64,000 nt of DNA from Eledone cirrhosa (taxonomy: Eukaryota), in contig OZ024743.1 in the NCBI GenBank assembly GCA_964016885.1, positions 145,762,001 through 145,826,000 of the forward strand. The letters run 5' to 3'. The notes below the pieces were generated by a model. That model searched no databases. It was given only the letters and a program-made list of their open reading frames with translations, and was not told where the DNA came from. Positions within the stretch are counted from its first letter, which is position 1. Every line of letters begins with the position of its first letter. The position numbers and the translations under genes were made by a program. Positions 1,697 to 51,760 of the stretch are shown piece by piece.

Positions 1697-2150
1697 TACA
1701 TACATGATGATGGCTGCAACTCGATTTTGAGTAATGCCATCGCTTGATACTTAAGCATGATCATCACGAACATGGCTTCCTAGTCCTGCTGGAGACTAGC
1801 TCATGGGCAGCAATACCATGCATCGCAAAAAAATGTCACATATCAAGCGATGCCTGCGAATGTATTTGCCCAAAAAGAAAAACTGGGCTACACCATTGGA
1901 TGTAAACGAAGTTGCAGGTTTTATATCAGAGTGACCTTCTCCTAGAGAAATGTCTTAATGAAAACTAGAAGTCTCTCGTTCCACAAAAAAAAATACTTTA
2001 TTGGATGGCCGTTGACTCTCCTGAGTTCCTCCGCTCTTTGACGGATTTTGTTTTTCATCCTGCAGGGTGTTGCCGGTTTAGTCGCTAACGACCCGATCAT
2101 GCACAGGTTTTATTGGGTTACATGTTACCAGTAGCGTTGAAGAGTGACCT
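1697..2150 (-). mobile_element. Older bipartite RTE-derived non-autonomous retroposon with (TATG)n tail
   Basis: Minus strand has the RTE 5'UTR-type motif CTAGGAGAAGGTCACTCTGA and 3' end GAGTTGCAGCCATCATCATGTATGTA; homologous to 35843-36375. Confidence 0.65.
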
Positions 2151-3832: not shown

Positions 3833-3881
<49 letters not shown>

Positions 3882-3935
3882 TCTACATAATAATGTCTAC
3901 ATAATAATAATGTCTACATAATAATAATGTCTACA
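3833..3935. repeat. (TAA)n followed by four GTCTACA units separated by short TAA runs
   Basis: Directly visible. Confidence 0.9.
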
Positions 3936-4159
3936 TCAACAATTATGGGACTGCTGGCTCACCCCTTCCTCACCAACAATATAAAAAGCCCCGGCACCAC
4001 CACCGACATAGCCAGCAGCAATAACAGCCAACTACAACAAAAAGTATATTATATTATTGTAATGCACTGGGTGATTGCTGGCCTTGTCCCTGGAGTGGAG
4101 ACAATTATTAATAATTTCATTCTTAAGCCACGCAATGCTCACATTAAGGAACCACTCAT

Positions 4160-7100
4160 GATAATAACAATTTAAAAAAAACAACAAAAAGAAAACCCCG
4201 TGACCAAGAAATACCGGGATGGCGGCCGGCGGGGAATAGCCATGTCTCTAGGGGAGAACGACCCCTCTAGTCTTGGTTGACACTCGTTCTAGAAGTGGTA
4301 ACACGAAAAGATTACCCCTTGGCGGATAAGGATAAAACGCGACAAAATAAAGTAGATGTCTAATGATGAAATCTCATACCGGATCGGCCGTCACCCGGGT
4401 AAAAAAGGGCCGCGTCCCTCAGAGAGGAACCAGACTGGGGTCGAAAAATCAGCTAATGGTTCAAACCTTCCCATCACTTCGGAGCTGGAGACCTCCCATA
4501 ACCGGAATACTCCTACTGTTGGCCCTCCATGCTCACCACCAAGAAATCCAAAGAAAAAGAGAGAAAAATGGTCAAGGGAAGATAATAAAGAAGTCCTTGA
4601 GGCTTTCTACACTGCCATGTACTACCCATCAAATACATCGAATACAGAGCAAACATATATCAACTGGAAAAAGAAACATCCCGAAAACAGAGGCTATATT
4701 GACAGTAACAAACTAGCCAATATACGAAGAAATATTGTAAGAAAAAAGTTACTAACTGATATAGAAATTGATCAGATCAAGCTAGTAGCACAAAGTCAGC
4801 GAAGGGAAAATGAAGCATGTGTCAGTGAAAACGAGGTAAACTGTAACACTTCGAATCCCAGAGTTGGGGCGGAATCACTGGCAACAGAACAAATTAAAGA
4901 AAGGAGCGAAAAAGTGGAGGGAGTGCATGCTCAGGATGAAACTCCAAATGAAAATAATGAGATCGTAAATGATAAAGAAATGAATGAGAATGAACTTGCC
5001 AACTTGAAGGATGAAATTATGATCGAATGGATGAAAATGAAAGAATCTGACATGGGGGAACGAGACACCCTCCCTAAGATCCAGAACTCCAAACAGAACC
5101 AAAAGATAATACACAAGACTAACATAATTCTCAAAAACATTATCATCACAAACAAAATAAACATTACTGACTTAAATCATCTCTATTATGCATCGGCTAA
5201 AGTCACCACTCACTTATGTGGAGTGAAGATGAAAAAACAAAGGAATTCCCACAAGAAATCTACTTGGCAAGATAACATCAATCGCCAAATAAACCTTCTC
5301 CGATCTGACATAGAAATTTTAACAAACTATAAAGTAGGTGAACATGTTAAACAAACTAAACTTAGAAAATTGAAAAAAAAGTACAGTATAAGATCAACAT
5401 GTGACATAGACATGCTGATAGAAACAATCAAGCAAAAAATGTCGGCCAAAGCTGCTCGTATAAGGCGCTTTGAAAAACGATCTAGATTCTATAAGGACAA
5501 TAATATGTTCAAAAACAACCAAAGAAACTTCTACAGAAAAATTGGTAAGTCAACAATAACTGCTAAATCAATACCACCCAAGGAGGAAGTGCAAGAATTC
5601 TGGGAAAAGATCTGGGCCGAAGAAAAAGTTCATAACATACATGCCCCATGGATAGACAGACAAATGAAAGAAACAGCTCACCTTGAAGAACAAACATGGG
5701 AAAATATAACAGTTGAACAGCTGCGCTTGGCTCTAAGAAAAACCAGCAAATGGAAATCCTCAGGAAAAGACAAAATACAAAACTTTTGGATAAATGCCTT
5801 CACAGAGTCTCATGAGCTGTTAGCCCAACTTTACAATGAAATAGTTAAGGAGCCAGAAAAGATACCATCATGGCTAGTTAACGGCATTACATTCCTGCTA
5901 CCGAAGAATGATGAGACAAACAATCCCAAAAATTACAGACCGATAACCTGCTTGACCACAATGTATAAAATTTTAACATCAGTCCTAACTGAATACACAT
6001 ATGACCACCTGATAACAAATGACCTATTTCCCATTGAGCAGAAAGGGTGTAAACGAGGCTCATATGGCTGTAAGGATCAGCTTCTGGTTAACAAAATGAT
6101 ACTGGAAGATTGTCATAATAGACACAAAAATCTATCGATTGCTTGGATAGATTATAAAAAAGCATTTGATAGTTTGCCACACAGTTGGATTGAAAAATGT
6201 TTAGAGATTTTCAAAATATCCCCCGTTGTCAGGAGGTTTTTGTCATTCAGTATGAGGACATGGAGAACGACACTCCTTTTGAATAGTGAAACAAAATCAC
6301 TGGAAGCTGGAGAAGTTAACATTAATTGTGGAATTTTTCAGGGTGACTCTTTATCACCGCTTTTATTCTGCATCGCACTTATACCATTAAGTAAAATGCT
6401 CAATGAAACAAAACATGGATATAGAGTCTATGACAAAACCATTAATCACCTGTTCTACATGGATGACCTGAAACTATTTGCAAAAAATGATGAACAATTG
6501 CAAGGGCTATTATCCACTGTGAAGCAGTTCAGTGATGACATTAAAATGGAGTTTGGACTGGATAAATGCACCAAAGCAACGTTCACCAGAGGAAAGCTGC
6601 TGAAGAGTTCAGACATTAATCTTGATCGGAGGAACGTGATAAGAGAGCTTGATCAAGAACAAACTTACAAATATCTAGGTGTTTGTGAAGGAGACGGAAT
6701 CAAGCACTCGACAATGAGGGAAAGGATAAGGAAGGAATGTTACCGCAGAGTCAGAGCAATCTTAAGAACGGAATTGAATGCAAGGAATAGGATCGATGCT
6801 ATAAACACGCTTGCCATACCAGTAGTAACCTACAGTTACAATGTCATCAACTGGTCAAGCACAGAGATCCGTAGGCTCGATACAAAAATCCGAAAATTCT
6901 TAACCATGCACAGAATGCATCACCCTAAGGCAGACATAGATAGAATATATCTCCCTAGGAAAGAAGGAGGACGTGGGTTAATCCAGTTAGACATTGCGTT
7001 GAAAACTGCAACAATTGGATTATCCACATATCTAAGGGAATCACATGATTGGATGATCAAACTCGTTTTGAAACACGAAAGCACCAAAAGATTATATTCC

Positions 7101-8147
7101 ATTACAAAAGATGCACAAAGATATAGTAATGGACTACAAATTTCAGAAGTCCCATTTACTGCTGAAATGGAAAACACAGAAAAAGCAAAGCAGGTAAAAG
7201 TAACTGCAAAGAAAGAACTGCTACAGAAACTGGCTAAGAAATGGCAAGAAAAGCCTCTGTATGGAAAATACCCAGAGCGAGCTAACAATCCTGATGTTGA
7301 CAAAACTTTAACCCATCAGTGGTTGGCATCCTCTGGACTGAAATCGGAGACTGAAGGACTGATTATATCCGCACAAGATCAGTGTCTGCCAACAAAAAAT
7401 TACCAAGCCAACATAATAAAAAATGGGTGCAGCCCATTATGCCGTGTATGCAAAAAACAACCAGAGACCATTGACCATATAATTTCAATGTGCAGTCCTA
7501 TAGCTCCAACCGAATACCTAAACAGGCATGACAGAGCTGCACAATACATACATTGGATAATGTGTAAGCATTTTGACCTGCCCCATCAAAAGAATTGGTG
7601 GGAGCATCAACCACCTCCCATACTTGAAAAAGATCACATCTCAATCTTGTGGAACTTTAGCATCCAAACAGACCGAAAAATAGATGCAAATAGACCTGAT
7701 ATAATATTGAAGGACTTTCAAAGGAGGGTATGCCTGCTAATTGATATGTCTGTTCCAATAGACAAGAATGTATCTATAAAAACATTTGAAAAATTGAGCA
7801 AGTATAAGGACCTGGAGATAGAAATTGGAAAAATGTGGAAATTGAGAACTAAAACAATACCAGTGGTTGTAGGCGCTCTGGGAATGATACCTAAGGGGTC
7901 TAACGACTACTTATCGCAAATCCCAGGAAACCCGCGTATAGGAGAAATACAAAAGATAGTACTAATGGGAACTGCCCATATACTAAGGAAGATCCTGTCA
8001 ATATAAGTACATCACAAGTCTAAACACTAAGGATGCATGTGTGAATATGTGTGTTCTTTCTTGAACATGGCGGACCTTGTTGTCTCTTGAGGTCACTGGT
8101 TGTGACTTGGTGATAACTCGTATAAACATAAAGCAAGATAAATGCAA
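4160..8147 (+). mobile_element. Apparently full-length R4/Dong-clade site-specific non-LTR retrotransposon
   Basis: Structured 5' leader, single long ORF, ~140-nt 3'UTR ending at (TAA)n 8147-8167; 5' boundary approximate. Confidence 0.9.
4356..8006 (+). CDS. Intact 1216-aa reverse transcriptase + CCHC + restriction-like endonuclease (R4/Dong-like)
   Basis: [46 protein letters not shown]...HIISMC, RHD, RPDII...LIDMSV...KLSKYKDL. Confidence 0.95.
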   Translation: MSNDEISYRIGRHPGKKGPRPSERNQTGVEKSANGSNLPITSELETSHNRNTPTVGPPCSPPRNPKKKREKWSREDNKEVLEAFYTAMYYPSNTSNTEQTYINWKKKHPENRGYIDSNKLANIRRNIVRKKLLTDIEIDQIKLVAQSQRRENEACVSENEVNCNTSNPRVGAESLATEQIKERSEKVEGVHAQDETPNENNEIVNDKEMNENELANLKDEIMIEWMKMKESDMGERDTLPKIQNSKQNQKIIHKTNIILKNIIITNKINITDLNHLYYASAKVTTHLCGVKMKKQRNSHKKSTWQDNINRQINLLRSDIEILTNYKVGEHVKQTKLRKLKKKYSIRSTCDIDMLIETIKQKMSAKAARIRRFEKRSRFYKDNNMFKNNQRNFYRKIGKSTITAKSIPPKEEVQEFWEKIWAEEKVHNIHAPWIDRQMKETAHLEEQTWENITVEQLRLALRKTSKWKSSGKDKIQNFWINAFTESHELLAQLYNEIVKEPEKIPSWLVNGITFLLPKNDETNNPKNYRPITCLTTMYKILTSVLTEYTYDHLITNDLFPIEQKGCKRGSYGCKDQLLVNKMILEDCHNRHKNLSIAWIDYKKAFDSLPHSWIEKCLEIFKISPVVRRFLSFSMRTWRTTLLLNSETKSLEAGEVNINCGIFQGDSLSPLLFCIALIPLSKMLNETKHGYRVYDKTINHLFYMDDLKLFAKNDEQLQGLLSTVKQFSDDIKMEFGLDKCTKATFTRGKLLKSSDINLDRRNVIRELDQEQTYKYLGVCEGDGIKHSTMRERIRKECYRRVRAILRTELNARNRIDAINTLAIPVVTYSYNVINWSSTEIRRLDTKIRKFLTMHRMHHPKADIDRIYLPRKEGGRGLIQLDIALKTATIGLSTYLRESHDWMIKLVLKHESTKRLYSITKDAQRYSNGLQISEVPFTAEMENTEKAKQVKVTAKKELLQKLAKKWQEKPLYGKYPERANNPDVDKTLTHQWLASSGLKSETEGLIISAQDQCLPTKNYQANIIKNGCSPLCRVCKKQPETIDHIISMCSPIAPTEYLNRHDRAAQYIHWIMCKHFDLPHQKNWWEHQPPPILEKDHISILWNFSIQTDRKIDANRPDIILKDFQRRVCLLIDMSVPIDKNVSIKTFEKLSKYKDLEIEIGKMWKLRTKTIPVVVGALGMIPKGSNDYLSQIPGNPRIGEIQKIVLMGTAHILRKILSI

Positions 8148-17744: not shown

Positions 17745-18270
17745 TGGTGGCTGCCAACTCGTTCACATCCGACGTAAGTTGTATTTCATCGGCTTTGTTA
17801 TTCCACCACTTATTCTTCATTTCACGCAAATTTTTTATATATATACATACATATATGGTGGCTGCCAACTCGCTTTCGAGTACGGCCACTACTTTATATC
17901 CATGTAGGAGAACTCCTACCGATGCGCTGAACGAGTGTGACTTTTTAGTCCAGCCAGCGACTTGAAAACTCTGGTACAAACACTACACTTGTGACAATTA
18001 TTGACACATAGTGCTGGACCCATGGTACCATGTGACGACAATTGCAGAGAGATCTCCATATATAAAGCAATGCCTGTGCCGTGAAGCTTATATAGTGAGC
18101 AAAGGCACTGTACAAAGCCAGTCCCACTCTCTTAACCAAGATGATATTTACCAAAAAGAAGAACAAGTCAACTTCATTGGATACCATCAGGGTTGCAGGT
18201 GTTATATCAGAGTTTTCCTTCTCCTAGAATTCTGCCTTGACAAGGGCTAAGGTGTCATCTCTCCTGGACA
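17745..18270 (-). mobile_element. Bipartite RTE-derived non-autonomous element plus fused short RTE fragment and a second tail
   Basis: Near-identical to copies at 35843, 38882 and 41058; KNLREMKNKWW fragment at ~17765-17835. Confidence 0.85.
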
Positions 18271-19134: not shown

Positions 19135-19310
19135 ATAATATAAGATCAAAAGATGGTTAAAGGAGTTCAATATATTTTATTATGCGCATTTCAAAAACAA
19201 ACATCATCAAACAATAATATTTGAAAACACAAATATTATTGTTTGATGATGTTTGTTTTTGAAATGCGCATAATAAAATATATTGAACTCCTTTAACCAT
19301 CTTTTGATCT

Positions 19311-30908: not shown

Positions 30909-30924
30909 TAACATAATCTTATAT

Positions 30925-32844
30925 TATTAAGAAGGAAAAAATGTGTGTAGTATTAAGAAAAGCTGTTAGCGAAAAACGCCGATACCTGAAGAAGGTAGAT
31001 GAGAGAAAAGTGCTTAATAAAAGATTCAGACGAAACCAAACATCAGTCTATAGAGATATGAAGAACAAAATAATAAGTGTCATTGAGGCCCCATCCCAGA
31101 AAGACATAGATTCCTTTTGGAGCAAAATATGGGGTGAAAAGAAGAATTTCAACCAAGATGCAGTGTGGCTAGGAGAAATCCGAAAGAACTATTGCTCCTA
31201 CACTACAACAAAAACATACGACATAAGTGAGGGTACCCTTGAGACTGTGATAGGAAAACTCCAAGATAAGAAAACACCAGGAAGAGACATGATTGTCGGC
31301 TACTGGTACAAAAAACTGATATTCTATCGGAGGTATCTTACTGACCTCTACCAACAAGTTCTTAAGGGAGACACACTTATACCAGAATGGTTGACATTCG
31401 CACAAACATTACTGGTCCCAAGAACAAAGACACCCACTAGGCAAAAAACTACCGACCCATTGCATGCCAGAACCTGATGTATAAGATGTATACAGCCTGC
31501 CTGAACCTATTCCTCCAAGATCACTGTGAAAATAATAACATCATCACAGATAAACAAGCAGCTGGAAAGAAAGGCTTTGGGGATGTGCTGAACAACTCCT
31601 AATCAACAAAACTGCGATGTCAGAGGTGCGACAACTTAGGAGGAATATGGCTACAGTCTGGCTGGACTACAGGAAAGCTTTCGATTCTGTTCCCCACTCT
31701 TGGATGATAGAGGCCCTCCAACTTGCTAAAGTCCCAGACATTATTGTCAGAGCCATAGAGAGGCTGTCTTCTTCTTGGGCTACTATCCTAAGGTTAAAGA
31801 CAGAGAGGGAGGACTCTATTTTCCCTGATAAAATAAAATGTTGCCAGGAAGCTCCAGAGTAAGAGTAATATAGATAAGGAAAGTAGTCTATCTTGGACCA
31901 ACAACCGCTATATTGGCTCCCACTTTGAAGGATACGCTTTTGCAATCCAAGAACAGGAGATTAACACGAAATACCTGATTCACAAAAGAGATAGGGATGC
32001 AGGCAAAACACCTAGATGTGATAACAAGTGCAGACTCTGCAGAACTAACATTGAGGATATCACCCATGTCATCAACAGCTGTCCAAAGATGTCATCGCGG
32101 TACTATCTACCTATGAGGCATGATGTAGTGGCCAAAACACTGTACAATGCAGTCCGTAAAAAAGATAGCCCCGATAATAAACACATTAAAAGCTACAGCA
32201 ATGTGGAAGACATTCACGTACATAATATGAAAGAGTACTGGTGGAATGTTCCAGTAAAAAAAAACAATAAAATGCAGGCATAACAGACCAGATATTATGA
32301 TATGGGACAGGGAGAAGAAAGCATGCAGAGTAATAGGAATTAGCTGCCCAGCGGATGCTAATTTAATATCAAAGATTAGCGAAAAGGAGAATATTTATGC
32401 AGAACTGATTGGAAATCTGCAGATACTCCACCCTGATTACACCTTCAAATTTATGCCTGTGATTATTGGGGCACTGGGGTATGTTAGTAACTGCCTCAAT
32501 ACAAATCTTGAGAAGCTAGGCTTTACAAGAACAGAAAGAACACAACTAGTTAGGAAATTACAAGTACAATCCATTAATGGAACAGTAAAAATATGTAAAA
32601 CATTCCAAAAATGTTGCATCTAATAACTGCATATACACATGCACAGATACAAAGCATGCACACATACAACTCAAAACATACACATCCACACATACAATAA
32701 CATCCATATCTACACATGCATGCATGCATACATAATTTACCTAGTTGATGTTGTGTAAATTCCAATGAGAAAGTATTGTGTCTATGTTAGAAACCGACTC
32801 TCCCTCTATTGGTAAACATTTGTGAAATTATAAAACCAGAAGAA
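30925..32844 (+). pseudogene. R4/Dong-like RLE element, family B, 5'-truncated with ~0.9-kb internal deletion
   Basis: KTPGRD, WLDYRKAFDS, RHD, ISCPAD, GTVKICKTF; homologous to 41662-44212; ends at CATA repeats. Confidence 0.85.
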
Positions 32845-33892: not shown

Positions 33893-34236
33893 AAATAGCC
33901 AGACTGGATACCCGATCGCGCGGTTAAACCACTGGGAGTGAAGGACCCCTAGCCTTTGTCAGGGCATTCTTCTAGAAGGTAACTCAGGAAACTGGGATAA
34001 CTCCGACATAAAACCTGCGGCTCAGTAATTACCGATGATGTTGATCTTTTCATCTTTTCGGGTTATATAGCTACTGTCGCTCAGAGAGTGGGATTGGCTC
34101 TGTGCACAGTCTTTCCTCACATTAAAATAAATCTTCATGCACAGGCATTGCACGATAGAATTAATTAATAATGGTATATCGTGCACTGGCCATACACGAT
34201 AACGAGGTGGCAGCCATCATCATGTATGTATGTATG
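33893..34236 (+). mobile_element. Variant bipartite RTE-derived element with (TATG)n tail
   Basis: Shares GACCCCTAGCCTTTGTC, GATGTTGA, GAGAGTGGGA, CACAGGCATTGC and GGCAGCCA blocks with the main family. Confidence 0.7.
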
Positions 34237-35842: not shown

Positions 35843-36375
35843 TGGTGGCTGCCAACTCGTTTTCGAGTACGGCCACTACTTTATATCCATGTAGGAGAAC
35901 CCCTACTGATGCGCTGAACGAGTGGTGACTTTTTAGTCCAGCCAGCGACTTGAAAACTCTGGTACAAACACTACACCTGTGACAATTATTGACACATAGT
36001 GCTGGGCCCATGGTACCATGTGACGACAAGTGCAGAGAGATCTCCAGATATAAAGCAATGCCTGTGCCGTGAAGCTTTTATAGTGAGCAAAGGCACTGCA
36101 CAAAGCCAGTCCCACTCTCTTAACCAAGATGATATTTACCAAAAAGAAGAACAAGTCAACATCATTGGATACCATCAGGGTTGCAGGTGTTATATCAGAG
36201 TTTTCCTTCTCCTAGAATTCTGCCTTGACAAAGGCTAAGGGGTCATCTCTCCCAGTGATTTTGGATGGCCATTGATTCTTAAGAGCTCCTTTGCCCCTCG
36301 ACAGGTTTTGTTTTTAGTCCTGCAGGATGTCCAAAGTCACCCTCCTCACCAAGAAACTTTGGTGGGGTTGCCAGT
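35843..36375 (-). mobile_element. Longest copy (~530 bp) of the bipartite RTE-derived non-autonomous element
   Basis: RTE 5'UTR motif CTAGGAGAAGGAAAACTCTGA joined to the last zinc finger (CSVCTRVFKSLAGLKSH) and 3'UTR with TATG tail. Confidence 0.85.
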
Positions 36376-37062
36376 TTAGTCGCCAACGACCCGACCATGA
36401 GACAGTTTGTACTGGGATACATGTTACCAGTAGCACATACATATATATACATACATACATACATACACATACACACATATAGACACATACATACATACAT
36501 ATAGACACACATATATACACATATACACATATATATATATAGTATTAAGGATACTATTTATGGTTATGCATATACTAAAACGTGTGTGTATTCATATACA
36601 CACTAGTATTTCAGTATGCATATGTAGATGTACATTTTTAACTTAATTGTTTAAGCGTCAGTCATACAAAAGTGAGTTACAAACGAAACGAAATTTAATT
36701 TCGTTTGTTTTTAAAACCTTTTATAGTTATATATATATATTATACCCTAAATAGTGAAAGACAGTAATTTATTACTATCTTGTTACCAGTAAGATAAATA
36801 GCTCAATGTAACAACATCAGTTGTTTTACAGAGCAGTTATATAGAGATCACATGAAACAAAGTTCTGCCCAAACCACCCATCCGCCCACAACCATGGAGG
36901 AAATGTGGTAAGGAACCAGGTGGACCATAACGCACCAAAGTACTCAATACTTAGGGTAGTAGAGTGGGTGATAGGAACGAGTGGGACCCCGACGGCTGAG
37001 CTCAAGCCATTTCGACGGCTAATTCTGGACTAGTCCAGAATTGGCCGTCGAAACGGCTATAT

Positions 37063-38610: not shown

Positions 38611-39292
38611 TGGTGGCTGTCAACTCGTTTTCGAGTACGGCCACTACTTTATATCCATGTAGGAGAAACCCTACCGATGCGCTGAACGAGTGTGACTTTT
38701 TAGTCCAGCCAGCGACTTGAAAACTCTGGTACTTGTGACAATTATTGACACATAGTGCTGGGCCCATGGTACCATGTGACGACAAGTGCAGAGAGATCTC
38801 CAGATATAAAGCAATGCCTGTGGCGTGAAGCTTTTATAGTGAGCAAAGGCACTGCACAATACATACATATATACATACACATGGTGGCTGCCAACTCGTT
38901 TTCGAGTACGGCCACTACTTTATATCCATGTAGGAGAACCCCTACCGATGCGCTGAACGAATGTGACTTTTTAGTCCAGCCAGCGACTTGAAAACTCTGG
39001 CACAAAGACTACACTTGTGACCATTATTGACACATAGTGCAGGGCCCATGGTACCATGTGACGACAAGTGCAGAGAGATCTCCAGATATAAAGCAATGCC
39101 TGTGCCGTGAAGCTTTTATAGTGAGCAAAGGCACTGCACAAAGCCAGTCCCACTCTCTTAACCAAGATGATATTTACCAAAAAGAAAAACAAGTCAACAT
39201 CATTGGATACCATCAGGGTTGCAGGTGTTATATCAGAGTTTTCCTTCTCCTAGAATTCTGCCTTGACAAAGGCTAAGGGGTCATCTCTCCCA
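38611..39292 (-). mobile_element. Two tandem 5'-truncated bipartite elements separated by CATA repeats (38611-38858, 38882-39292)
   Basis: Direct homology to 35843-36375. Confidence 0.85.
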
Positions 39293-39380
39293 AATACATA
39301 CACATACACACATACATACATACATACATACATACATACATACATACATACATACATACATACATACATACATACATACA

Positions 39381-41009
39381 TTATCTCCCATCTTTTCTTT
39401 GTTGATGACCTGAAGTTGTATGGGCCAAATATCAATGACATCAAGAAACAATTGGACCTCATTACACAATTTTCAACAGACATCAAAATGAAATTTGGTG
39501 AGTCCAAGTGTGCATATTTGGCAGTAAAACGTGGAAGAGCTGTGGCCTCCTCTAGAAATCTAGAGATGAACGGCCTGACAATACAACCTCTACAGTCAGG
39601 TGACAACTACAGATATCTTGGACAGGATGAGAATGTCAGATATGATGGACCCATAAATAAGGAGAGAACCAGAACTGAATACCTCAGAAGAGTAAAGAAA
39701 ATATGGTCATCAGAACTGTCAGCGTACAACAAATACATTGCCCACAATACTTATGCTGTGCCAATTCTAACGCTAACATTTGGCCTGCTGAACTGGTCAT
39801 TGCAAGAACTAAGTGAGATGGATGTTAGAGCTCGCAAACTTCTCAGTGTTACTGGGAACTTTAACATCAATGGTGATGTGGATAGGCTACATTTCTCACG
39901 CAAGGAAGGTGGCCGGGGTCTAAAATCCATATTAACATCATATGAGACCCGGATAGTAACACTGAAGCAACATTTGCAACAGAGGAAAAAGGTTGGCAAG
40001 CATCTTGCCCAGGTTTATGAGCATGAAAAAAAATATATCATTAGAATAGCGACTGATCTGGAGGAGAGATATGGAATAAAGCCTGATATAAATGTCTCAC
40101 CCAGAGAAATCGGAAGATCCTATTCAATGTTCAAATAAGATGAAAAATTGACCAATTTACAGAAAAAGTTGTGCATGGATACTTGAGACGTAAAACACAG
40201 ACCATAGAGGGAATAAACCACTCAAAAAGCCTGGCATGCAGTTCCGACAGGTTTATGGCGTCACACCTTGAGGGATATGTCTATGCAATACAGGAACAAG
40301 AACTCCCTACCAAATATCTGCTTCACAAAAGGGGAGGGTCATCAGCTGACAATAAATGTAGGCTATGTAAAACAAAGATCGAGGATGTAAGCCACATTGT
40401 TGCCAGCTGCGAAAGAATGTCGTCTTGCTACTACCTCCCTACGAGACACGACGTGATAGTTAGAACCATCTGGAACGCACTTCGGAAAACAAAATTAACA
40501 ACAAACGAGGAAGAATATATTGAGACAGATGGCCCTAAGGAATACTAGTGGAACCTGAAAATAAAAACTGCCACCAAATTAAAGCTCAACCGGCCTGATA
40601 TTGTTGTTTGGGACCACACATTGAAAACGTGTTCTGTTGTGGATATCAGCTGCCCACTTGATGTAAATGTTGTCAGAAAAATACAGGAGAAGGAGGACAT
40701 CTACGGACCATTGATGAGGAGTTTACAAATCCAGTATCCAAGATACACCTTTAGCTTCATACCCATCATTATTGGAGCTACGTGTTATATACCAACCCGC
40801 TTGGACCAAAGTATGACTGAACTTGGATTTGCGGACAAAGAGCGCAGCTCCCTAATTCATATTCTACAAATGGCTGCGATAGCTGGCACCTTCAAAATTT
40901 GCAAAACATTCTTGCGATTCAAGGGATGACAATTTCTTTTCTTTTACAACCTTGCCACCAGGAAGGTGGCCGGTCAAAAAAATATACTCGAAATTAAGAG
41001 AAAGAGATA
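39381..41009 (+). pseudogene. RLE family A, 5'-truncated, (CATA)n on both sides
   Basis: HLFFVDDLKLY, GGRGL, CRLC...HIVASC, RHD, ISCPLD. Confidence 0.9.
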
Positions 41010-41057: not shown

Positions 41058-41607
41058 GGTGGCTGCCAACTCGTTTTCGAGTACGGCCACTACTTTATAT
41101 CCATGTAGGAGAACCGCTACCGATGCACTGAACGAGTGTGACTTTTTAGTCCAGCCAGCGACATGAACACACTGGTACAAACACTACACATGTGACAATT
41201 ATTGACACATAGTGCTGGGCCCATGGTGCCATGTGACGACAAGTGCAGAGAGATCTCCAGATATAAAGCAATGCCTGTGCCGTGAAGCTTTTATAGTGAG
41301 CAAAGGCACTGCACAAAGCCAGTCCCACTCTCTTAACCAAGATGATATTTACCAAAAAGAAGAACAAGTCAACATCATTGGATACCATCAGGGTTGCAGG
41401 TGTTATATCAGAGTTTTCCTTCTCCTAGAATTCTGCCTTGACAAAGGCTAAGGGGTCATCTCTCCCGGTGATTTTGGATGGCCATTGACTCTTAAGAGCT
41501 CCTTTGCCCTTTGACAGGTTTTGTTTTTAGTCTTGCAGGATGTCCAAAGTCACCCTCCTCACCAAGAAACCTTGGTGGGGTTGCCAGTTTAGTCGCCAAC
41601 GACCATG
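41058..41607 (-). mobile_element. Bipartite RTE-derived element between two (CATA)n tracts
   Basis: Direct homology to 35843-36375. Confidence 0.85.
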
Positions 41608-41661
41608 ATACATACATACATACATACATACATACATACATACATACATACATACATACAT

Positions 41662-44212
41662 ACATACGAAATAAGTGAGGGTACCCTTGAGACTGTGATA
41701 GGAAAACTCCAAGATAAGAAAACACCAGGAAGAGACATGATTGTCGGCTACTGGTACAAAAAACTAATATTCTATCGGAGGTGTCTTACTGACCTCTACC
41801 AACAAGTTCTTAAGGGAGATACACTTATACCAGAATGGTTGACATTAGCACAAACATTACTGGTCCCCAAGAACAAAGACACCCACTTGGCAAAAAACTA
41901 CAGACCCATTGCATGCCAGAACCTGATGTATAAGATGTATACAGCCTGCCTGAACCTATTCCTCCAAGATCACTGTGAAAATAATAACATCATCACAGAT
42001 GAACAAGCAGCTGGAAAGAAAAGGGTTTGGGGATGTGCTGAACAACTCCTAATCGACAAAACTGCGATGTCGGAGGTGCGACAACTTAGGAGGAATATGA
42101 CTACAGTCTGGCTGGACTACAGGAAAGCTTTCGATTCTGTTCCCCACTCTTGGATGATAGAGGCCCTCCAACTTGCTAAAGTCCCAGACATTATTGTCAG
42201 AGCCATAGAGAGGCTGTCTTCTTCTTGTGCTACTATCCTAAGGTTAAAGACAGAGAGAGAGGACTCTATTTTCACTGATAAAATAAAATATTGCAGGGGT
42301 ATATTTCAGGAGGACAGTCTCTCTGTGATATTGTTCATCTTGTCATTAAACCCCTTGTCCTTTCTGCTCAAGAAATGTGAAGGATACATCATTGGCTCAC
42401 AAGAGGACAGAAATACGAACCTAACCCATAACTTCTTTGTGGACGATCTGAAACTCTATGCCAAGAACATGGATGGGATGAAGAAAAATCTTGACCTGGT
42501 TACAACGTTCTCAAAGGATATAGGAATGGAGTTTGGCCAAGATAAATGCTCATACATGACTGTAAAGTGGGGAAAAACAAGAACCCAATCTAGCAACATT
42601 GTCATCAATGGTATAACTGTTTCACCGATATCTGATGAGGACTGCTACAGATACCTGGGGATAGATGAGAACATATCCTATAATGGTATCTGTAATAAAG
42701 AATGCGTAACCAGGGAATACTACACCCGATTAAGAAAGATTTGGTCATCGGAACTCTCTGCGCAAAACAAAACAGTGGCTCACAATGTGTTTGCTGTGCC
42801 TGTCCTAACACCAACGTTTGAAATACTCAATTGGACGCTAGACGAAATCCAAGCAGTTGATGTTGGAACTCGAAAAATACTGAACAACACCGGAAACTTC
42901 CACATCAACAGTGACATGGACCGCCTTTACTTGAAACATAAGCAGGGAGGCAGAGGCCTAACATCAGTCCAGACAACATTTGAATGTCGCATCATATCTC
43001 TCCGACAACATCTACGAACCTCGAAGCGTAGGAGCCCGCTTCTCGAGCAAGTCTATCTGCATGAAACAGATAAGATCGTAAGAGTTGGGAAGGAACTCCT
43101 CGAGAGATATTCCCTGTGTGATAATCAAAAACTCACACCCAGGGATGTCGCTCAGCAGTATCGCAGTGAATCCATGGATGAAAAACTGCATGCCTATCAG
43201 CAAAAAAATCATGCATGGATATGTTGCCAGGAAGCTCCAGAGTGAGAGTAATATAGATAAGGAAAGTAGTCTATCTTGGACCAACAACCACTATATTGGC
43301 TCCCACTTTGAAGGATACGCTTTTGCAATCCAAGAACAGGAGATTAGCACGAAATACCTGATTCACAAAAGAGATGGGGATGCAGGCAAAACTCCTAGAT
43401 GTGATAACAAGTGCAGACTCTGCAGAACTAACATCGAGGATATCACCCATGTCATCAGCAGCTGTCCAAAGATGTCATCGCGGTACTATCTACCTATGAG
43501 GCATGATCTAGTGGCCAAAACACTGTACAATGCAGTTCGTAAAAAAGATAGCCCCGATAATAAACACATTAAAAGCTACAACAATGTGGAAGACATCCAT
43601 GTACATAATATGAAAGAGTACTGGTGGAATGTTCCAGTAAAAACCCCAATAAAATGCAGGCATAACAGACCAGATATTATGATATGGGATAGGGAGAAGA
43701 AAGCATGTACAGTAGTGGAAATTAGCTGCCCAGCAGATGCCAATATAATATCAAAGATTAGTGAAAAGGAAAATATTTATGCAGAACTGATGAGAAATCT
43801 GCAGATACTCCACCCTGATTACACCTTCAGATTTATGCCTGTGATTATTGGGGCACTGGGATATGTTAGTAACTGCCTCAATACAAATCTTGAGAGGCTA
43901 GGCTTCACAGGAACAGAAAGAACACAATTAGTTAGGAAACTACAAGTACAATCCATTAATGGAACAGTAAAAATATGTAAAACATTCCAAAAGTTTTGCA
44001 TCTAATAACTGCATATACACATGTACAGATACAAAGCATATACACATGCACACATACAACTCAAAACATACACATCCACATCTACACATGCATACATAAT
44101 CTACCTAGTTGATGTTGTGTAAATTCCATTGAGAGAGTCTTGTGTCTATGTTAGAAACCGACTCTCTCTCTATTGGGAAAAAATTTGTGAAATTATAAAA
44201 CCAGAAGAACAT
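41662..44212 (+). pseudogene. RLE family B, 5'-truncated, single frameshift at A-run ~43202-43208
   Basis: NYRPIAC, GIFQEDSLS, FFVDDLKLY, CRLC...HVISSC, RPDIMIWD...EISCP. Confidence 0.9.
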
Positions 44213-49944: not shown

Positions 49945-51760
49945 TCATTGTTTTACATCCATTTTCCATGCTTGCATGGGTAGGACGGGTCTTTTGCCAC
50001 ACAGCATCCCTCCACTTGTTGCGGTCTTTTATTAACTCTTCTGGGAGCTACAGCGATTTGCGTTCACTTCTCGCAACCTCAGCCTAGGTTTTCTTTGGTC
50101 TCCTACTACAGCTTACTACCACTGAGATTCCTTAGCACTTCTTCACCCAGCAATCATCAGCTATATGCATTACATAGACATACCAATGCAGTCTTCTCTT
50201 GCACACAGCTCATCCACGCTTTGTCATTCTTGCACATTAACATTGTGCATCCATCAGAGCATGCTTGTTTCATTTCTCTCTAGCATATTCTCTACATTCC
50301 TGTCTTACTGCCATGCAATATTGCACTTTATACACAGACATCATATAACCAGCCTTTCCTTCATAGAGAGAAACCTTTTTTTTTTATCAACAGAGGTAAT
50401 AGCTCCTTGAACCTTTTCCATCCAGTTCTTGTTCTAGCTACTATGTTTTCAGTGCAACCTCCTCCAATGCTAATTAGATCACCTAGGTAGCAGAAGCTAT
50501 CAACTACTTCTATGAATTATTCAAATAAAGCTCTTCTTTCATGACATATGTGTATTTTACTAAATTCATGCAAATGTCCTCAAAGATTTGAACAACTTTG
50601 TATCAAGCAAGGCCACTTCCCCAATGGGATCAGGGTCCTGCCTTCCTTTCTCCTTACCAAAACTTTCATTTTCCCATATTTACTTTCAGTTCTGTTTCCA
50701 AAGCCGGAATTTCTTCTTTAGTTCATCTACAGATTTAACTATAAGAACTATTGTTAGCATACAGAAGTTCCCAAAGACAGCTACTTTTAAATTCCTCTTA
50801 TAGCATGGAGAACTATAATGGTTTCTTATATAGGCACAAGGCCAGCAATTTTGGAGGAGGGGAAAATCGATTAAATCGACCCCAGTGCGAGATTGGTACT
50901 TTATTTTATAGACCCTGTAACGATGAAAGGCAAAATCAAATCCCACCGAGGTTAACTTTGCCTTTCATCCTTACGGGGTCTATAAAATAAAGTACCAGTC
51001 TCGCACTGGGGTCGATTTAATCGATTTTTCCCCTCCCCCAAAATTGCTGGCCTTGTGCCTATATAAGAAACCATTATAGTTCTCCATGCTATAAGAGGAA
51101 TTTAAAAGTAGCTGTCTTTGGGAACTTCTGTATGCTAACAATAGTTCTTATAGTTAAATCTGTAGATGAACTAAAGAAGAAATTCCGGCTTTGGAAACAG
51201 AACTGAAAGTAAACATGGGAAAATGAAAGTTTTGGTAAGGAGAAAGGAAGGCAGGACCCTGATCCCATTGGGGAAGTGGCCTTGCTTGATACAAAGTTGT
51301 TCAAATCTTTGAGGACATTTGCATGAATTTAGTAAAATACACATATGTCATGAGAGAACTGTAATGAATAGAAATAAGCTGATGACTGAGCCTTGATTAA
51401 CACCTACCTGCACACTGAATTCTTCACTAAATGCATTACCTACTATCACCTTACTAACAGCTCTTCTGTACATGACTTGCACTGCTCTTACAAGCCATTC
51501 TTGAACCCCTAGTTTCTTTAGGGACCACCAGATGACAGATCATGGTACTCTGTCACAGGTCTTCTCTAGATCAATAAAAAGCTAGTAGTTGTCTCTTGTA
51601 GTTGTCTTACTAAGAATAGAGCATATATGGTACTAAAACACTTTCTAATTACGTAGTTGCTCCAAAACTCTTTCTGTCATTTTCATAACTTTGGCCATCA
51701 ATTTTATACCCCTCTTGTTGCTCCCTTCTAGAGCATGATCTTTTCCCCTTTTTTCAATAT
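49945..51760 (-). mobile_element. Decayed RTE interrupted by a SINE and an inverted duplication
   Basis: GVNQGSVIS, WELLYAN, KKFRLWKQ, FCYLGD remnants. Confidence 0.7.
50539..51353. repeat. ~400-bp near-perfect fold-back inverted duplication
   Basis: Mirror ORFs 50588-50803(+) and 51089-51304(-) differ by one residue. Confidence 0.95.

Follow-up and report, generated by a model that had tools for sequence, protein, structure and literature searches.

A Dong-type element and its leader

The window, a 64,000-nucleotide stretch of the Eledone cirrhosa genome, contains on its forward strand an intact open reading frame (ORF, 4356..8006) encoding 1216 amino acids with a reverse transcriptase (RT), a CCHC motif at 1029 and a PD..D..K nuclease motif at 1114-1146. 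The nearest solved relatives of the product are R2 proteins. The element displays features of the R4/Dong clade, namely a single ORF combining RT, CCHC and restriction-like nuclease, and a (TAA)n target; on this architecture and target we take it to be of R4/Dong type.

Upstream of the ORF lies the remnant of the 5' UTR (3929..4355, forward strand), preceded by a (TAA)n run with short duplications. The UTR measures 1.09 kb in full-length copies, and the window copy is 5'-truncated near 3929. At this junction (3880-3935) the first 10 bases are repeated four times with TAA units interleaved, a pattern that suggests repeated re-priming of the template. The family is young and large, with 1204 exact matches to a single anchor; at one site (C1:131996043-132011880) four Dong anchors recur with a period of about 5.3 kb, probably a head-to-tail array of full-length elements. 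Two Dong-type families (window 30917-32623, 39254-40929 and 41593-44005; L103, L146, L150) lie immediately behind (CATA)n instead of (TAA)n, and their leaders are short and AT-rich.

The leader carries a core module at 4250..4293 (forward strand) consisting of a first helix, P1 (AGGGG 4250-54 with CCCCT 4262-66), a hairpin, P3 (4270-72/4279-81), and a helix joining the P1 loop to a downstream strand, the module ending in CUAG. The words to which the original prediction had assigned the loop pairing, GAACG (4256-60) and CGTTC (4285-89), are present as described, as are its long-range words, and the helix proves one pair longer than claimed (AGAACG 4255-60 with CGTTCT 4285-90). The module is internal to the UTR, P1 lying at 982 of 1087 nt with some 980 nt of UTR ahead of it in full-length copies, and its 3' edge is 66 nt upstream of the ATG. 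It is present at 29 of 30 sampled Dong loci. It is followed by a purine-rich tail (4291..4316), which has diverged from the RTE form, AGGAGAAGG, and preceded by a Dong-specific part (4196..4249) carrying the proposed long-range words. The extra pairings suggested for these words receive no support from covariation: GACCAA/TTGGTT, which would join an upstream word to the P3 loop, gives p 0.10 across 22 representatives, and the other words are unchanged between Dong subfamilies.

Related modules in the window and elsewhere

Six RTE-derived copies in the window contain the same module. One lies on the forward strand at 33933..33975, in a second RTE-derived short family (the 33.9-kb family, 4519 exact anchor copies), with GAAGG/TCTTC at 33940-44/33968-72; another, on the reverse strand at 1917..1984, belongs to a third RTE-derived element and has the minus-strand pairing GAGAG/TTCTC, both pairings being as first reported. 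Four more, all on the reverse strand, belong to the main bipartite RTE family, which counts 17,675 exact anchor copies: 36186..36255; 18198..18265, in a copy that begins 2 nt ahead of P1; 39224..39292, in a copy that begins with the very first base of P1; and 41399..41467, in a copy truncated upstream of the module. The pseudoknot of this family had been described as weaker, and its helix indeed contains a mismatch. Here too the module is internal to the leader, with P1 at 202; a degenerate second module lies upstream of it (159-195 of the L036 reference).

A pattern scan of metagenome sequences, in which P3 and CTAG were fixed and the pseudoknot partners left free, yielded 121 of about 470 loci, while viral contigs gave 0 pattern matches. 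A covariance model was then built from 20 metagenome modules, with the pseudoknot omitted and no Eledone cirrhosa sequence included. This model matches Dong 4249-4316 with 33.5 bits (E 1.7e-7) and every model pair intact. It also matches all six RTE-derived copies of the window: the four of the main family score 38-44 bits, the one at 1917-1984 scores 29 bits, and 33933-34015 gives a weak match (14.9 bits, E 0.019). Two Ceph-type SINEs score 72 bits. In a Ceph-type SINE (L523) the module stands behind a tRNA-like head, and at four loci (L200, L218, L231, L189) it is found upstream of APE-type ORFs. Modules also occur as tandem 70-nt units (L158:1403-1484; L189, L200, L212, L253, L274). Many of the prokaryote-labelled assemblies (L512-L544) contain animal-type R4/Dong elements and SINEs, which are probably host contamination.

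The sequence itself is a known one. Kojima 2018 (PMC5786205) reported it, as a sequence, as a domain of the RTE mid-5' UTR that is also present in Ceph-SINEs, Ingi-3_AC and the coral element R4-1_ADi, and in two copies in AviRTE; the alignments in its supplement show by eye the same motif as the window modules. Judged by sequence, Dong 4250-4293 is a copy of this conserved mid-5' UTR domain of RTE retrotransposons, which shares its mid-UTR position with the modules described here and is kept in bipartite RTE derivatives and SINEs. The cross-clade occurrence of the sequence domain is thus already known from that work. The paper gives no structure, the words 'pseudoknot' and 'stem' each occurring 0 times. 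New against the literature searched are the fold with its pseudoknot covariation, a second R4-type host in which one pair is compensated, and an accumulation of insertion 5' ends at P1. The module had been put forward as undescribed, and this is true of the fold in the literature searched (some key older papers, bioRxiv supplements and patents lie beyond that search) and untrue of the sequence domain, whose presence in R4 and Ingi elements is on record.

No relevant Rfam match, to twister, hammerhead or any other family, was obtained for the whole 64-kb window at E<=1 or in local scans of the Dong and 1.9-kb modules at E<=10. Long near-perfect inverted repeats at 50828-51064 and 19173-19280 have sub-threshold Rfam miRNA matches; the first looks like two SINE pieces placed head-to-head.

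A predicted pseudoknot

Covariation was assessed on an alignment of 34 representatives drawn from 42 clusters, the exclusion of 8 partial or decayed clusters favouring the model; one mis-cut main-family row was dropped from the single-pair and tree-null tests, leaving 33 modules for these. The loop-tail helix (6-7 bp) is 86.6% paired, with two-sided changes in five of its seven pairs, and covaries with a G of 142 against 40±11 in a tree-based null (0/1000), a result repeated in the 20 metagenome rows alone (0/1000). The proposal of a covarying structured module common to the RLE element and RTE-derived elements is therefore borne out in the larger alignment for the helix as a whole. The two best pairs rank as the top 2 of 1830 column pairs, and single pairs are not significant (E about 0.2). 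P3 is likewise supported (0/1000 with all rows, 13/1000 minus four shifted rows), and P1 covaries weakly (71/1000; 30/1000 in the metagenome rows). The sequences of Kojima add independent pairs, by eye, including AGGTGG/CCACCT, AGATTGG/CCAATCT, AGATGAT/ATCATCT and AGGTTGA/TCAACCT.

The predicted fold is an H-type pseudoknot with a P1 of 4-5 bp, a second helix of 6 bp and, within its long loop, an inserted hairpin; the purine tail comes next. There is probably one crossing base, and the caveat stands that, should P1 not form, the fold would become a nested stem with an inner hairpin. Nested folding of single sequences was no better than that of shuffles (z +0.42 for 4196-4345; z -0.15 to +1.37 for six modules), and a loose structure descriptor was uninformative, with 43 matches in the window against 27-37 in shuffles. 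In the tail, the sequence AGGAGAAGG is conserved among RTE modules with no helix supported, and a fourth helix tried there found no support (286/1000 in the tree null).

Origin of the Dong copy

An older Dong subfamily (60-90% amino-acid identity by tblastn) has AGGACG/CGTCCT in place of AGAACG/CGTTCT, and both changes are also seen in contigs of run X1. The compensated pair, 4257/4288, accounts for two of the three core differences within the Dong lineage. A rough count puts the chance of two of three core changes pairing at about 2-4%, so that this one event offers modest evidence of selection.

The leaders of Dong families 2-4 in Eledone cirrhosa gave no module match, nor did the 33 of 34 R4-related loci covered (all but L544), most of which contain little or no leader; strong matches in L523 and L531 are separate SINE-type insertions. 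An ancestral R4 feature was considered and rejected on the lack of matches in these families and loci. The original prediction had left open whether the module was conserved or exchanged between the clades. Exchange is likely and conservation unlikely: because three other Dong families are without the module, capture is a likelier history than ancestry, and the Dong lineage would have taken it from an RTE-derived repeat. Kojima 2018 (PMC5786205) suggested the same route for Ingi. In two Dong families with 42% protein identity (L010 and L109-L113, the latter the window 8132 family) the first 300 nt of the 5' UTR are 72% identical and one of the two is without the module; the shared start is probably a promoter or UTR swap.

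Insertion 5' ends

Two of the four main-family copies in the window start at P1. The pattern was followed in two samples, both from contig C1, with copies chosen on anchors 3' of the module and the start window fixed at 195-208. In the first (81 of 17,675 copies; 41 full length, 40 truncated) 10 of the 40 truncated copies start at 200-208 (p 3.6e-5) and two inside 209-274. In the second, selected on a CpG-decayed anchor (71 of 996 copies; 30 full length, 41 truncated), 8 of 41 start at 200-207 (p 1.5e-4). Combined, 18 of 81 truncated copies begin at the 5' edge of the knot (p 2e-7). Per base, starts in the second sample run at 0.95% on the edge itself, 0.07% within the module, 0.11% beyond it and 0.27% far upstream, this last figure being inflated by microhomology to the (TATG)n target. 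The edge junctions vary in position and 17 of 18 are off target-like trimers; peaks at 33, 51 and 57 fit microhomology. A further peak of the first sample, at 152-156, is near the degenerate upstream module and also on a target-like trimer, and is weak in the second sample (2 copies).

Of the 82 copies of a headless 290-bp metagenome SINE, which lacks a tRNA head, 51 begin exactly on the first G of P1 and 63 in all no more than 1 nt away from it, with one copy running 185 nt further; this start may come from a single founding event. For Dong, 0 of 70 copies (about 23 truncated) start at P1 (Fisher p 0.011 against 18/81 in the main family), and the 33.9-kb family has no visible peak, one of 70 copies starting at P1 and most, by eye, about 56 or 17 nt upstream. 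Accumulation at the base of P1 is therefore seen in the main family and the metagenome SINE and not in Dong or the 33.9-kb family, and it concerns ends of inserted DNA rather than of RNA. The family with the pile-up has the weakest pseudoknot, while Dong and the 33.9-kb family have better ones and no peak. In the 33.9-kb family a GC-rich hairpin stands 56 nt ahead of P1, and its base is where most copies start; this family (L442-L511) travels in composite masters with an upstream microsatellite and pieces of other SINEs.

An RT that stalled would be expected to stop on the 3' flank of a structure, so that ends at the 5' edge point instead to RNA ends at that place or to a lost protein anchor; decay arrest, cleavage and a start site could each supply such RNA ends.

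A start site is what would be expected were the domain an internal promoter initiating at the first G of P1, with the knot at the transcript 5' end of secondary importance. LINE promoters can consist of tandem monomers, which the tandem units resemble; the headless SINE begins exactly at P1, and the main-family starts are spread over 200-208. A speculation that the domain binds transcription factors has also been published (Kojima 2018, PMC5786205). We nevertheless consider a promoter improbable: a DNA element leaves the covariation unexplained, the module lies mid-body in Pol III SINEs, a cap-derived G is not over-represented ahead of P1 (6 of 57 copies), and about half of the main-family copies begin 200 nt upstream.

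Cleavage just 5' of P1 by a slow ribozyme of an undescribed class would also give starts at the first G of P1; the layout resembles the HDV fold minus P3/L3, and ribozymes have been reported from RTE and R4 elements. However, such cleavage would remove the tRNA head of the SINEs and the 980 nt of Dong UTR, both of which are kept; the starts extend across 9 nt, Rfam offers no matching ribozyme, and the HDV-like arrangement that can be drawn for Dong alone has neither the G in L3 nor the C-N-A junction. A ribozyme is accordingly very unlikely.

A candidate barrier to 5' decay

The explanation to which we lean, while holding it short of probable, is that the module acts, alone or with a bound protein, as a barrier on the 5' side against 5'-to-3' trimming of element RNA. 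The RNA would be nibbled from its 5' end as far as the knot, templates starting at P1 would accumulate and be copied into DNA that starts there, and the body behind the knot would be protected from decay. One Dong lineage would have captured the module and kept it under selection, conceivably because obstructing a nuclease of the host would take no cognate protein from the retrotransposon. In favour are the covariation of the helix, the pile-up of 5' ends at P1, the tandem modules and the compensated pair 4257/4288. By analogy, decay arrest would match the xrRNAs of plant viruses, whose pseudoknot is required for halting Xrn1 at the P1 base (PMC6299227), and a host-facing role would fit transfer between clades. 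Against it, the pile-up is missing from Dong and the 33.9-kb family despite their better pseudoknots, and in viral xrRNAs the pseudoknot is a strict requirement; covariation is weak for P1, without which there is no knot, and reaches significance in no pair taken singly; the topology is unlike that of known xrRNAs; and tRNA-headed SINEs keep the module mid-body (L523; Kojima 2018), which a docking site for protein explains better.

Such a dock, in which the knot would be bound by the RTE protein as a second handle besides the 3' tail, anchoring the template during reverse transcription, is possible though doubtful. Copies would then end at the 5' edge through loss of the anchor or trimming of RNA outside the footprint, and the Dong copy would be mostly a passive passenger. 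Many independently born RTE-mobilised SINEs retain the fragment behind a Pol III head (PMC5786205; PMC4844689; L523), few copies start inside the module, the pile-up is in RTE-mobilised families and not in Dong, the tail is conserved in sequence without pairing, and R2 protein binds a pseudoknotted UTR RNA (PMC12222951). On the other hand, the module is present in elements with unrelated proteins (Dong, R4-1_ADi, Ingi-3_AC), there is a compensated pair inside the Dong lineage, and in the second sample 8 of 71 copies start beyond the module, at 275-375. Barrier and dock are not mutually exclusive, and the dock follows close behind.

Of the functions originally named (IRES, ribozyme, RT-binding), IRES and ribozyme are the weaker. 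A knot binding ribosomes or initiation factors would aid translation of uncapped LINE RNA and bring SINE RNA close to freshly synthesised RTE protein, a part played for L1 by the Alu domain. Its host-facing role fits inter-clade transfer, the Dong module ends shortly before the ATG, and IRES-like activity has been proposed for HDV-like leaders (PMC6765202). We rate this too as improbable: the first in-frame ATG lies 64, 95, 230 and 645 nt from the module in four APE elements, a variation that argues against a start-positioning IRES, and several hundred nt away in R4-1_ADi (PMC5786205), and no pile-up at the 5' edge is predicted.

Should the barrier hold generally, the module might represent a class of exoribonuclease-resistant cellular RNAs, undescribed so far and spread across animals, in which a 45-nt pseudoknot protects and sets the 5' ends of RTE and SINE RNA and is portable to R4/Dong and Ingi elements; this broader proposal is a tentative one. 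Kojima 2018 (PMC5786205) leaves open why RTE-mobilised SINEs of vertebrates, insects and cephalopods retain part of the RTE 5' UTR, and the question can be put directly to the test with a covarying fold of defined 45-nt extent that leaves a measurable footprint on the ends of insertions. If the module blocks Xrn1, it would be such a structure in cellular mobile elements, of which a literature search on that point found no description. RTE UTRs are also under empirical optimisation for RNA-based gene insertion (PMC13708176).

Comparison with known structured RNAs

The closest parallel to the proposed barrier is the xrRNA-D of plant viruses (PMC6299227), likewise a small pseudoknot; it gives RNA 5' ends at the P1 base and can precede coding sequence. 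Helix layout and sequence differ, and the module shows DNA insertion ends only, with the peak missing in two of four families.

The R2 UTR pseudoknot bound by R2 protein, a model for the dock, is also small and retrotransposon-borne; unlike the module it is placed in the 3' UTR and is clade-specific (PMC12222951).

The HDV-like ribozymes of R2, R4 and RTE leaders (PMC3774820) similarly comprise a pseudoknot in a non-LTR leader with a hairpin inserted before the closing strand, and in some families the element starts at the first G, as here. The shared fold differs in having no P3/L3/P1.1 core, and in being internal rather than at the full-length 5' end. For Dong alone an HDV-like double pseudoknot can be drawn (P2 4255-59/4286-90, P3 4260-62/4270-72, P1' 4273-78), which competes with the shared helices and needs the upstream-loop pairing that is not general (p 0.10). 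This candidate was rejected, as L3 would be CCCUCUA and the junction GACACUC, so that the G in L3 and the catalytic C with A in J4/2 (features given in PMC3774820) are missing. A strict HDV descriptor found nothing in the Dong leader, and 0 of 70 Dong copies start at 4202 or P1, that is, with the HDV cleavage site as 5' junction.

Twister variants at RTE 5' ends (PMC8501958 and PMC7761336) are also structured RNAs of RTE leaders that set insertion 5' ends. They are terminal and catalytic, and the module has no Rfam twister match. The strict HDV descriptor also found nothing in the 5'-terminal 90 nt of the main RTE-derived family (36340-36434, reverse strand; full form in L034 and L036); this segment is predicted to form several hairpins and includes a CUAA word, and may be a terminal ribozyme of the element.
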